Assembly (NCBI GenBank): GCA_024278335.1
Contig: JAJRTJ010000003.1
Coordinates: 101,297-165,296 of the forward strand
Direction of reading: 5' to 3'
Origin: an archaeon
GTDB taxonomy: Archaea; Nanobdellota; Nanobdellia; Pacearchaeales; GW2011-AR1
DNA length: 64,000 nucleotides
Shown: piece by piece, positions 13,474 to 54,584 of the stretch
Layout of the letters: every line of letters begins with the position of its first letter
Numbering within the stretch: the stretch's first letter is position 1
Notes under the pieces: model-generated
What the model was told of the DNA's origin: nothing
Database searches by the model: none
Seen by the model: the letters and a program-made list of their open reading frames with translations, nothing else
Position numbers and translations under genes: made by a program

Positions 13474-13498
13474 ATGAGGACGTCTCGGACTGGACTCG
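13474..13498 (-). repeat. 25-bp exact copy of the 3' end of tRNA-Asn plus 7 nt of its trailer
   Basis: ATGAGGACGTCTCGGACTGGACTCG at 13474-13498 equals 13544-13568. Confidence 0.9.
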
Positions 13499-13550
13499 GT
13501 ATGAAGTCTCGGGATTAAAATCCCTCGGCGAGCCACTCCGAAAATGAGGA

Positions 13551-13623
13551 CGTCTCGGACTGGACTCGAACCAGCGACCTAACGGTTAACAGCCGTTCGC
13601 TCTACCAACTGAGCTACCGAGAC
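13551..13623 (-). tRNA. tRNA-Asn (anticodon GUU)
   Basis: Hand-folded cloverleaf GTCTCGG/TA/GCTC-AGTTGGTA-GAGC/G/AACGG-CTGTTAA-CCGTT/AGGTC/GCTGG-TTCGAGT-CCAGT/CCGAGAC/G. No encoded CCA. T4 follows. Confidence 0.9.
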
Positions 13624-13631
13624 ATCTCTAT

Positions 13632-13687
13632 TCAGCTGGTTCAAGCCAGAATCTCGTAGAGATTTTCTGAGCATACCAACTGAGCTA
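13632..13687 (-). other. tRNA-Asn D-arm fragment (13673-13687) plus conserved 41-nt module (13632-13672) upstream of tRNA-Asn
   Basis: The minus strand reads TAGCTCAGTTGGTAT then GCTCAGAAAATCTCTACGAGATTCTGGCTTGAACCAGCTGA. The module is 38/42 identical to 54455-54496. Confidence 0.8.
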
Positions 13688-13710
13688 TAAAAAGATTAGA
13701 ATAAATTTGC

Positions 13711-13718
13711 TTTTAAAA
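13711..13718 (-). promoter_or_regulatory. TATA-like octamer TTTTAAAA
   Basis: Lies 23 nt upstream of the tRNA fragment at 13687, the same spacing as TTTTAAAT to +1 of tRNA-Ile. Confidence 0.4.
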
Positions 13719-41946: not shown

Positions 41947-42543
41947 ATGGAGATTTCAGCTAAGACTGCAGAGGAAATAGATGACTCTCGTGAAAAAGAG
42001 GACTTGAGAACTCTTGAAGCAGTTTTGTTTGTTTCTGGGAGATTTTTAAATATGACAGAGTTAATTTCACTTAGTGATTTTAATCCAATAATTCTTAAAG
42101 AGCTTTTGGAAAAATTAAAGGACAAATATGAAAAGATGGACTCTGCAATTGAAGTTGTTGAGAAAAATGGGCTGTGGAAAATGGATGTGAGGCAGGAATA
42201 TTCTTGGCTTGTGAATAAGCTTGCAACAGGAAGCTCAGAATTCACCAAAGCAGAAAAAGAGACTCTGGCAATTATTGCATTTAAACAGCCAATTAAGCAG
42301 TCAGTAATTATCAAGATTCGGGGAAATAAGGCATATGACCATATTAAAAAATTTTTTGACCTTGGATTAATTAAGAAGAAAAAAGAAGGGCATACGAGCA
42401 TTCTAAGTTTAAGCGACGATTTTTATGATTATTTTGGAATTCAAAATCCTGAGGGGGGAAATCCTTTAAAGATAGTTCTTAAGAAAGAGATGGAGATTGA
42501 AAAAGCAGGAGATGCTGAAGAAAGTTCAGTGAGGGAAAAGTAA
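41947..42543 (+). CDS. scpB: Segregation and condensation protein B (ScpB)-like
   Basis: LEAVLFVSGRFLNMTEL and tandem winged-helix layout. Confidence 0.7.
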   Translation: MEISAKTAEEIDDSREKEDLRTLEAVLFVSGRFLNMTELISLSDFNPIILKELLEKLKDKYEKMDSAIEVVEKNGLWKMDVRQEYSWLVNKLATGSSEFTKAEKETLAIIAFKQPIKQSVIIKIRGNKAYDHIKKFFDLGLIKKKKEGHTSILSLSDDFYDYFGIQNPEGGNPLKIVLKKEMEIEKAGDAEESSVREK

Positions 42544-54332: not shown

Positions 54333-54392
54333 TTTTTTTATAGACGGCTTTTAGCCATAGAGGTGATGTCTCTTTTTTTCTTATAAGAAGTT

Positions 54393-54400
54393 TTTTAAAT
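54393..54400 (+). promoter_or_regulatory. TATA-like octamer TTTTAAAT
   Basis: Lies 30 nt upstream of the tRNA-Lys 5' fragment copy. There is no comparable element at promoter distance from the full tRNA-Lys. Confidence 0.35.
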
Positions 54401-54430
54401 TAGCTTTTTATTTTGGTTATATCCTTTACT

Positions 54431-54496
54431 GGCTCCGTAGCTCAGCCTGGTTAGGCTCAGAAAATCTCTAACGAGATTCTGGCTAAAACCATCTGA
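54431..54496 (+). other. Exact copy of tRNA-Lys positions 1-24 (54431-54454) plus conserved 42-nt module (54455-54496)
   Basis: GGCTCCGTAGCTCAGCCTGGTTAG equals 54510-54533. The module GCTCAGAAAATCTCTAACGAGATTCTGGCTAAAACCATCTGA matches 13632-13672 (minus) at 38/42. Confidence 0.85.
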
Positions 54497-54509
54497 CCTG
54501 CAAATATAT

Positions 54510-54584
54510 GGCTCCGTAGCTCAGCCTGGTTAGAGCACCAGACTCTTAATCTGGGTGTCGTGGGTTCAAATCCCATCGGGGCCA
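54510..54584 (+). tRNA. tRNA-Lys (anticodon CUU)
   Basis: GGCTCCG/TA/GCTC-AGCCTGGTTA-GAGC/A/CCAGA-CTCTTAA-TCTGG/GTGTC/GTGGG-TTCAAAT-CCCAT/CGGGGCC/A. No encoded CCA. Confidence 0.9.

Follow-up and report, generated by a model that had tools for sequence, protein, structure and literature searches.

What is a partial copy of a tRNA gene doing directly upstream of the intact gene, at just the distance from a TATA-like box at which the gene itself might be expected to start? The question is raised by the tRNA-Asn locus of a 64,000-nucleotide (nt) stretch of AT-rich DNA (about 32% G+C; hereafter the window), whose proteins point to DPANN archaea of the Woese-, Pace- or Nanoarchaeota type. On the minus strand of this locus, the 63 bases inserted between promoter and tRNA-Asn fold as a single hairpin composed of a 14-nt copy of part of the tRNA (X1), a conserved bulged cap (H) and a tail complementary to X1. 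The answer that we favour, with about as much confidence as doubt, is that positions 13624-13687 are one instance of a new small insertion element, a hairpin about 55-85 nt in size residing in stable-RNA genes of DPANN archaea, and that this element duplicates its target, would be transcribed as a self-folding 5′ leader and would be removed together with that leader. This reading draws on a family of related sequences, on their fold and its covariation, on the position of the promoter compared with that in relatives and on presence/absence polymorphism; transcription through the insert, its removal by RNase P and a mechanism of mobility are steps that we infer.

Read along the minus strand, the locus opens with a TATA-like box, TTTTAAAA (13711-13718), followed by a 23-nt promoter-to-start spacer, gcaaatttattctaatcttttta (13688-13710). 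Box and leader can be aligned with those of a related locus, L002 (leader ggaaatttattctaattttctta), where they run straight into the first nucleotide (+1) of tRNA-Asn, which identifies them as the ancestral tRNA-Asn promoter; in the window, the same leader meets X1. X1, TAGCTCAGTTGGTA (13674-13687), is an exact repeat of 13603-13616, corresponding to tRNA-Asn positions 8-21, and forms the 5′ arm of the hairpin and the putative transcription start region. It is followed by a T at 13673 and by a 41-nt module (13632-13672). H itself spans 13643-13673 and reads, with its bulges in square brackets, (U)GC[U]CAGA[AA]AUCUC-UAC-GAGAU-UCUG-GC(U) (covariance model R1, 50.2 bits, E 1e-12). Behind it comes the tail, GAACCAGCUGA (13632-13642); the final 9 nt of this tail, ACCAGCUGA (13632-13640), serve as the 3′ arm of the hairpin and match the reverse complement of X1 imperfectly. 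An 8-nt spacer, AUAGAGAU (13624-13631), which holds no TATA box, leads to the +1 position, 13623, of an intact tRNA-Asn(GTT) (13551-13623; Rfam RF00005, 72.2 bits; ARAGORN, 13548-13624); both the length and the sequence of this spacer differ between copies of the element. An earlier, sequence-only reading had already delimited the box, the fragment and the module here, and every one of its coordinates was verified on the minus strand, as was its observation that the 23-nt distance from TATA box to fragment is the same as that at the tRNA-Ile gene of the window.

The same module stands upstream of tRNA-Lys(CTT) on the plus strand (54430-54509). There, downstream of a TATA-like box (54391-54400), repeat search, fold and covariance model delimit X1 (54430-54454), H (54454-54485), the tail (54482-54501) and a spacer (54502-54509). 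The Lys X1 is a 25-nt exact copy of the tRNA start (54430-54454 equals 54509-54533), and the module (54455-54496) is followed by a 13-nt stretch and then by tRNA-Lys from 54510. Between the Asn and Lys copies there are 0 changes in the 26 nt of H and 4 changes in 16 nt of the tails. Chance cannot account for the module shared by the two loci: its core is present exactly two times in the window, 100 shuffles giving an expectation of 0.00, and the covariance model assigns 50 bits to each of these copies and no more than 17 bits to any other place in the window. Run with its filters off, the model detected no window copies beyond those at Asn and Lys, and the 17-bit match, at 42232-42271, sits within a coding region.

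What the sequence-only reading had not included is the relation between tail and fragment: because the tail is an imperfect reverse complement of the fragment, fragment, module and tail make up one long hairpin. In the minimum-free-energy (MFE) fold of the Asn leader, UCAGUUGGU of X1 pairs with the tail ACCAGCUGA through nine contiguous base pairs, including one G.U pair, and the shared core stands on top. This fold has an energy of -22.8 kcal/mol (z = -3.6); the Lys leader behaves in the same way (z = -3.2), and in the full Asn precursor the leader hairpin and the tRNA cloverleaf fold independently. Across the family described below, RNA folding pairs the 5′ fragment with the tail in nearly all copies. 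We assessed the specificity of this pairing by swapping tails between copies in place of shuffling them within the MFE fold, where AT-rich arms beside a strong hairpin pair spuriously. Own tails out-paired foreign ones (-10.6 versus -7.5 kcal/mol; Mann-Whitney p = 0.008), and the Asn copy ranked 1/16, with -16.0 kcal/mol for its own tail against -13.5 kcal/mol for the best of 15 foreign tails. A second perfect hairpin previously noted in the Asn module, CTGG-CTTGAA-CCAG, does exist as a sequence, but it lies outside the MFE fold, competes with those helices that are conserved and has no counterpart in the other copies.

Aligning the copies revealed covariation at the pair that flanks the invariant core, which is GC in 8 copies, AU in 5 and UA in 1; the next pair out is GC in 6, GU in 5 and UG in 2. 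The bulges of H, an invariant U and a 2-nt bulge, lie on the same strand. Both are kept in a variant of H, GGACUGGAUAUCUCUUACGAGAUCCGUCC, that stands upstream of tRNA-Gln(CTG) (L012, 6150-6220) within the same arm architecture; this variant also retains the apical AUCUC/GAGAU helix, and CAGA/UCUG is replaced in it by GG/CC, indicating that the family is broader than searches for the exact core show. The basal stems contain 23 G.U pairs as against 3 A.C mismatches, and this excess points to the H-sense strand as the one that is folded or under structural selection.

Relatives of the window carry the same tRNA loci with and without the insert. Two of them, L001 and L002, have a syntenic Asn locus (KH protein, tRNA-Asn, nitroreductase; KH proteins 79% and 66% identical to that of the window) that lacks the module, and in this comparison the Asn site is filled in the window only. 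The four H-bearing Lys loci are syntenic orthologues, with neighbouring proteins that are 45-85% identical: besides the window, the Lys site is filled in L009, L018 and L027 (TFS 70-77% identical to that of the window), and it is empty in L032 and in L034/L035 (TFS 79-81% identical), where the TATA box is followed by 24 nt and then by the tRNA. Empty Asn and Lys sites at which the same promoter abuts the tRNA +1 imply that the insert has been gained or lost. Among the copies of the element, 12 of 14 have a TATA-like hexamer 23-29 nt upstream of the fragment. The promoter thus placed lies upstream of the hairpin, as in a structured leader, with none visible in sequence between hairpin and tRNA; the module recurs at other tRNA loci in relatives, and no larger segmental duplication is present. 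The earlier proposal that the fragment marks the start of transcription, which would then continue across the module to the tRNA, is supported by this comparative evidence, namely the empty site of L002, the TATA spacing in 12 of 14 copies and the TATA-free Asn spacer. We also observed that tRNA promoters lie 23-27 nt from the tRNA +1 in the window (13688-13718, 30881-30911 and 54391-54430) and in L001, L002, L032 and L034. A fixed promoter-to-+1 spacing of this kind has been described in Nanoarchaeum equitans in connection with leaderless transcription of tRNAs.

How widely H occurs was assessed with core-pattern scans of representative genomes and of Joint Genome Institute (JGI) metagenomes, for which a match to the exact H core was required. 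The exact core was found at eight loci in seven genomes (one genome having two) and at 12 metagenome loci, seven of which add new copies; the same 20-nt core is present at 16 non-redundant archaeal loci, all of them from Woese-, Pace- or Nanoarchaeota. Bacterial and viral matches to the core lay within coding regions, and a scan of IMG/VR returned only one chance match, inside an open reading frame (ORF) of a 159-kb contig. The consensus of H, which measures 26-31 nt, is (G/A/U)C[U]CAGA[AA]AUCUC-UNN-GAGAU-UCUG-G(C/U/A). Almost every copy has the same layout, consisting of a TATA-like box, 23-29 nt, X1, H, a tail complementary to X1, a variable spacer and the intact gene, and the inserts measure only 40-110 nt in all 16 loci, with no long version found among them. 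Two copies lie in the window and three in the E14 metagenome-assembled genome (MAG), exact H being present in 1-3 copies per genome. The tRNA hosts are tRNA-Lys(CTT) in four lineages, tRNA-Cys(GCA) at four loci, tRNA-Glu at three loci, tRNA-Asn and tRNA-Thr, and the notion that the fragment is specific to its locus and the module shared, originally drawn from the Asn and Lys loci, holds in the 16 loci. Comparison of the orthologous Lys loci shows an identical H, partly conserved tails and unalignable spacers; judged from these alignments, H is the constrained part of the element.

Three placements depart from the leader of a tRNA gene. At L022, H is inverted, on the opposite strand, beyond the 3′ end of tRNA-Ile. 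At L013 (598-974; also L023), H lies within archaeal RNase P RNA, in a 57-nt insertion flanked by a perfect 14-nt repeat, AAAAAGTTGTCAGG; the RNA matches RF00373 with 73.9 bits (E 1.6e-20), under the gathering score of 84, and contains a second insertion, of 101 nt, near its 5′ end. This is the sole H copy inside a mature RNA, and it shows that RNase P RNA is present in an H-bearing relative. At L005 (5300-5440, minus strand; also L021), H occupies the 5′ untranslated region of the gene for ribosomal protein S12, where it stands on an AU-rich basal stem with a TATA box 26-27 nt upstream; in this S12 leader, no direct repeat copying the sequence further downstream was detectable. The RNase P RNA copy and the mRNA-leader copy, like presence or absence in relatives and the tRNA 3′-end duplications, had no place in the sequence-only reading.

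Comparison of the copies suggests where their parts come from. The direct repeats measure 5, 14, 14, 14, 15, 19, 25 and 30 nt, the shortest being at tRNA-Cys. In L009, the repeat takes in 6 nt upstream of +1, which points to DNA, as opposed to mature tRNA, as the template of the copy. In L012 and L017, the same tail is found at two paralogous tRNA-Glu genes whose X sequences differ by a single position; each X1 matches its own tRNA and the tail does not, so that X1 appears to derive from the target and the tail to have been inherited with the element. Similarly, the Asn tail of the window is closer to the Lys tail (9/10) than to a perfect complement of its own X1 (8/10). The Asn X1 lacks tRNA positions 1-7 even though the ancestral leader abuts it, and the repeat is offset by 7 nt from the junction. 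We agree with the earlier conclusion that a simple target-site duplication does not fit this locus; the simplest account is that the missing pseudo-acceptor strand was probably lost by secondary deletion. At the Thr copy (L024), the acceptor strand has diverged and the paired part of the D-arm is kept. As to H itself, we note that its outer helix (CAGA/UCUGG) and its AUCUCU segment (54458-54481) resemble the anticodon stem (CCAGA/UCUGG) and loop (CUCUUAA) of tRNA-Lys(CUU) (54536-54552). H may have originated from the Lys anticodon arm, and the likeness could also be a coincidence.

End duplications occur at three of the three window tRNAs, and 3′ duplications are common at related loci. At tRNA-Asn, a mirror-image structure follows the 3′ end (13474-13550, minus strand; identified by repeat and fold), consisting of the trailer, a segment that we call anti-Y (13529-13540), a small hairpin, GGGAUUUUAAUCCC, and Y2, a 25-nt exact copy of the tRNA-Asn 3′ end with a 7-nt trailer (13474-13498 equals 13544-13568); the two copies lie 70 nt apart with a 45-nt insert between them. 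Anti-Y complements the T-arm and acceptor strand and pairs with Y2 in the fold. This structure is absent from L001, and L002 has a 3′ duplication with a different insert. The 3′ hairpin GGGATTTTAATCCC was not recurrent among the fetched loci, and a possible shared 3′ junction motif, GAACTTGTT, was seen at two loci only, a motif scan recovering only L002. The tRNA-Ile(GAT) of the window (30634-30881, minus strand) has a 35-nt intron and a 33-nt exact repeat of its 3′ end and trailer (30756-30788 and 30634-30666); directly after the first repeat copy stands AGATTTGAA, the complement of the T-loop region. Immediately past the 3′ repeat of tRNA-Ile (28997-30275, minus strand) lie an ORF of 136 amino acids with an N-terminal CxxC and no Pfam match, for which a zinc ribbon is suggested by the CxxC, and a protein bearing an HsdS (type I restriction-modification specificity) domain; this segment may be a small island beside the tRNA.

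Two loci show the arms without H. Upstream of tRNA-Met (L010, 7486-7606, minus strand) and of tRNA-Ile(TAT) (L016, 1347-1457, plus strand), a 5′ copy, an unrelated module of about 30-55 nt, a complement and a spacer precede the tRNA; going by these sequences, the arm architecture is not tied to H. Between L034 and L035, two assemblies of one species, the difference is a tandem duplication, 115 nt in size, that takes in the 3′ end of tRNA-Lys, its trailer and the 3′ module; a 17-nt insert at the junction, GAACTTGTTTCCGAAGC, is partly complementary to the acceptor strand, and L002 has a similar junction motif. A DNA-level process that copies tRNA ends both directly and in inverted orientation seems to be active in these genomes.

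According to the reading that we favour, an insertion that duplicated its target at the DNA level would have placed the element between the ancestral promoter and the intact tRNA. Transcription would then begin at the old start site, which is now the fragment, and the insert, by folding on itself, would sequester the tRNA-like fragment and keep it from competing with the real tRNA for pairing. RNase P would be the most likely enzyme to release the whole hairpin as a 5′ leader. At loci such as Lys, where the direct repeat begins at +1, the empty site would be regained exactly if X1 recombined with the tRNA, which may explain the patchy distribution of the element. H would presumably be recognised by a putative insertion machinery or RNA-binding protein. 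A further-reaching and distinctly more tentative version of this reading is that H-elements are a new class of DPANN miniature mobile element residing in highly transcribed stable-RNA genes, which copies its target directly and in inverted orientation on insertion, thereby building its own insulating stem and regenerating the gene, with the cap as a handle for a putative enzyme. A direct plus an inverted target copy would make insertions into single-copy essential tRNA or RNase P RNA genes harmless and reversible.

Several observations weigh against our reading. No transposase, integrase or reverse transcriptase was found near the element (Pfam, 30 window ORFs), and we know of no mechanism that yields both a direct and an inverted copy of the target. 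Repeat lengths of 5-30 nt are unlike a classical target-site duplication, and the Asn copy is not adjacent to the insertion point. One to three exact-H copies per genome are few for a selfish repeat. Perfect conservation of H across lineages whose neighbouring proteins are 45-85% identical fits purifying selection by the host at least as well as mobility, and the invariance of the nine inner pairs of H is in part ascertainment because the searches demanded the exact core. Neither an RNase P RNA nor an RNase P protein was found in the 64-kb window (Rfam; Pfam on 30 ORFs), and these lineages otherwise place their promoters as if their tRNAs were leaderless.

The main rival explanation takes H for a host-selected RNA motif, a putative protein-binding site in transcripts of the translation apparatus that would govern their processing, stability or translation, with the copied arms as an insulating stem. 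We regard it as possible, though less probable than an insertion element. Every host gene serves translation, copies are few per genome, conservation of H is 100% at orthologous tRNA-Lys loci with spacers that resist alignment, changes in the variant copy are compensatory and leave both bulges intact, and the G.U excess indicates a fold at the RNA level, all of which such a motif would explain. Against this rival, H is not confined to a constant set of genes: the Lys site is empty in the window's nearest relatives, and only the window has a filled Asn site. One copy lies antisense to a tRNA 3′ flank, and no candidate binding protein is linked to the loci. Moreover, the same arms surround unrelated caps at the Met (L010) and Ile-TAT (L016) loci, which argues that the architecture is made by a process and was not designed around H.

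Partial tRNA copies flanking inserts are also the hallmark of tRNA-targeted integration (PMC3293823), and the partial end copies at all three window tRNAs, like the common 3′ duplications at related loci, would fit the scar of a site-specific integrative element, plasmid or virus, that entered the 5′ part of the tRNA and was later almost wholly deleted. We consider this unlikely, as the inserts are 40-110 nt throughout the 16 loci without a long version, and one and the same H stands beside fragments of Lys, Asn, Cys, Glu and Thr tRNAs and of RNase P RNA, whereas the attachment site of an integrating element (attP) would carry one fixed tRNA segment. The 5-nt repeat at tRNA-Cys and the internal site in RNase P RNA speak against it as well, complementarity between tail and fragment has no role in attachment (att) sites, and there was neither an integrase among the 30 window ORFs nor a genuine match in IMG/VR. 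More improbable still is that the locus is the relic of an intron or split tRNA, in which the upstream fragment would be the true 5′ exon and the archaeal splicing endonuclease would remove the module together with the second copy. In its favour, the pairing of the tail with the presumed 5′ exon is reminiscent of intron guide sequences, the copy in RNase P RNA is located within a mature RNA, and DPANN archaea possess non-canonical introns and endonucleases of broad specificity (PMC5829648). However, the Asn copy without positions 1-7 and the Thr copy (L024) with its diverged acceptor strand could not yield a functional tRNA, a complete and high-scoring tRNA follows downstream in every case, and H, with 1-nt and 2-nt bulges on the same strand, contains no bulge-helix-bulge.

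DPANN archaea have tiny genomes with single-copy tRNA genes, and a conserved insert that would make some of their precursors long-leadered, and that is present within RNase P RNA too, bears on the maturation of tRNA 5′ ends, on how essential RNA genes tolerate insertions and on the disruption of archaeal tRNA genes by introns and gene splitting. If the element is mobile, its target-copying, self-insulating design is without a described counterpart; if H is a protein-binding motif, it would define a new RNA regulon in a lineage whose RNA biology has hardly been explored by experiment. Either way, the covariance model offers a handle for metagenome and metatranscriptome surveys.

No published description of the element was found in Rfam or in the literature searched. 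With Rfam 15, only the tRNAs of the window reached the gathering threshold; the best match to the module was mir-133 (13.8 bits, E 2.4), and the scan by E value gave at most 14 bits, which is noise. Several known classes were considered and rejected. A C/D or H/ACA guide small RNA, or a K-turn, would need elements that the sequence does not contain, as it has no C box, tandem G.A pair or ACA box. An archaeal bulge-helix-bulge intron requires two 3-nt bulges on opposite strands, 4 bp apart, and in the folds seen here one strand carries both bulges, of 1 nt and 2 nt, on either side of a 4-bp helix. A split or permuted tRNA is contradicted by the full-length tRNA-Asn (72 bits) and by the fragment without positions 1-7. 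The element resembles miniature inverted-repeat transposable elements (MITEs), or transposons with terminal inverted repeats, in being multi-copy with presence/absence polymorphism; it cannot be placed among them, as its arms are locus-specific and follow the adjacent gene, its repeat length is not fixed and the Asn repeat is offset by 7 nt. Its likeness to att sites is that a direct repeat of the tRNA, 14 nt at Asn and 25 nt at Lys and exact in both, flanks the insert. A viral origin was rejected, as IMG/VR gave only the chance match in an ORF.

Templated insertions from snap-back or template-switch repair are unique events with no conserved inserted sequence. Their junctions, with direct and inverted copies of the flank that measure 5-30 nt and vary, look like those seen here; the element differs in having the same constrained 26-31-nt hairpin at every H junction. 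With bacterial rRNA intervening sequences, expansion hairpins and structured pre-tRNA leaders it has in common that a self-contained hairpin sits in or beside a stable RNA, is non-destructive and sporadic, and is removed or tolerated at the RNA level. Those structures have no conserved cap across unrelated RNAs and no stem built from duplicated host sequence. REP/REPIN sequences and PATEs, which derive from IS200/IS605, have constant ends, no long target duplication and tens to hundreds of copies. They are alike in being short, conserved, imperfect hairpins with bulges, multi-copy in transcribed non-coding DNA, encoding nothing and varying in presence. Unlike them, the H-element has a stem built from its target and 1-3 copies, and the target duplication argues against membership; no cognate Y1/HUH transposase (TnpA/RAYT) was found in the 64-kb window (Pfam, 30 ORFs).

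The closest published precedent is a locus of Caldiarchaeum subterraneum, where a 5′ tRNA-Thr fragment is followed by a 1.8-kb element with a recombinase and by the intact tRNA (Sugahara et al. 2012, PMC3293823). There, too, inserted DNA separates the intact gene from a partial 5′ copy of the tRNA that precedes it, and the locus varies among close relatives. Unlike the Caldiarchaeum element, the H insert is about 50 nt long and geneless, combines one hairpin with fragments of many tRNAs, carries the complement of the fragment and folds with it, and occurs in RNase P RNA as well.

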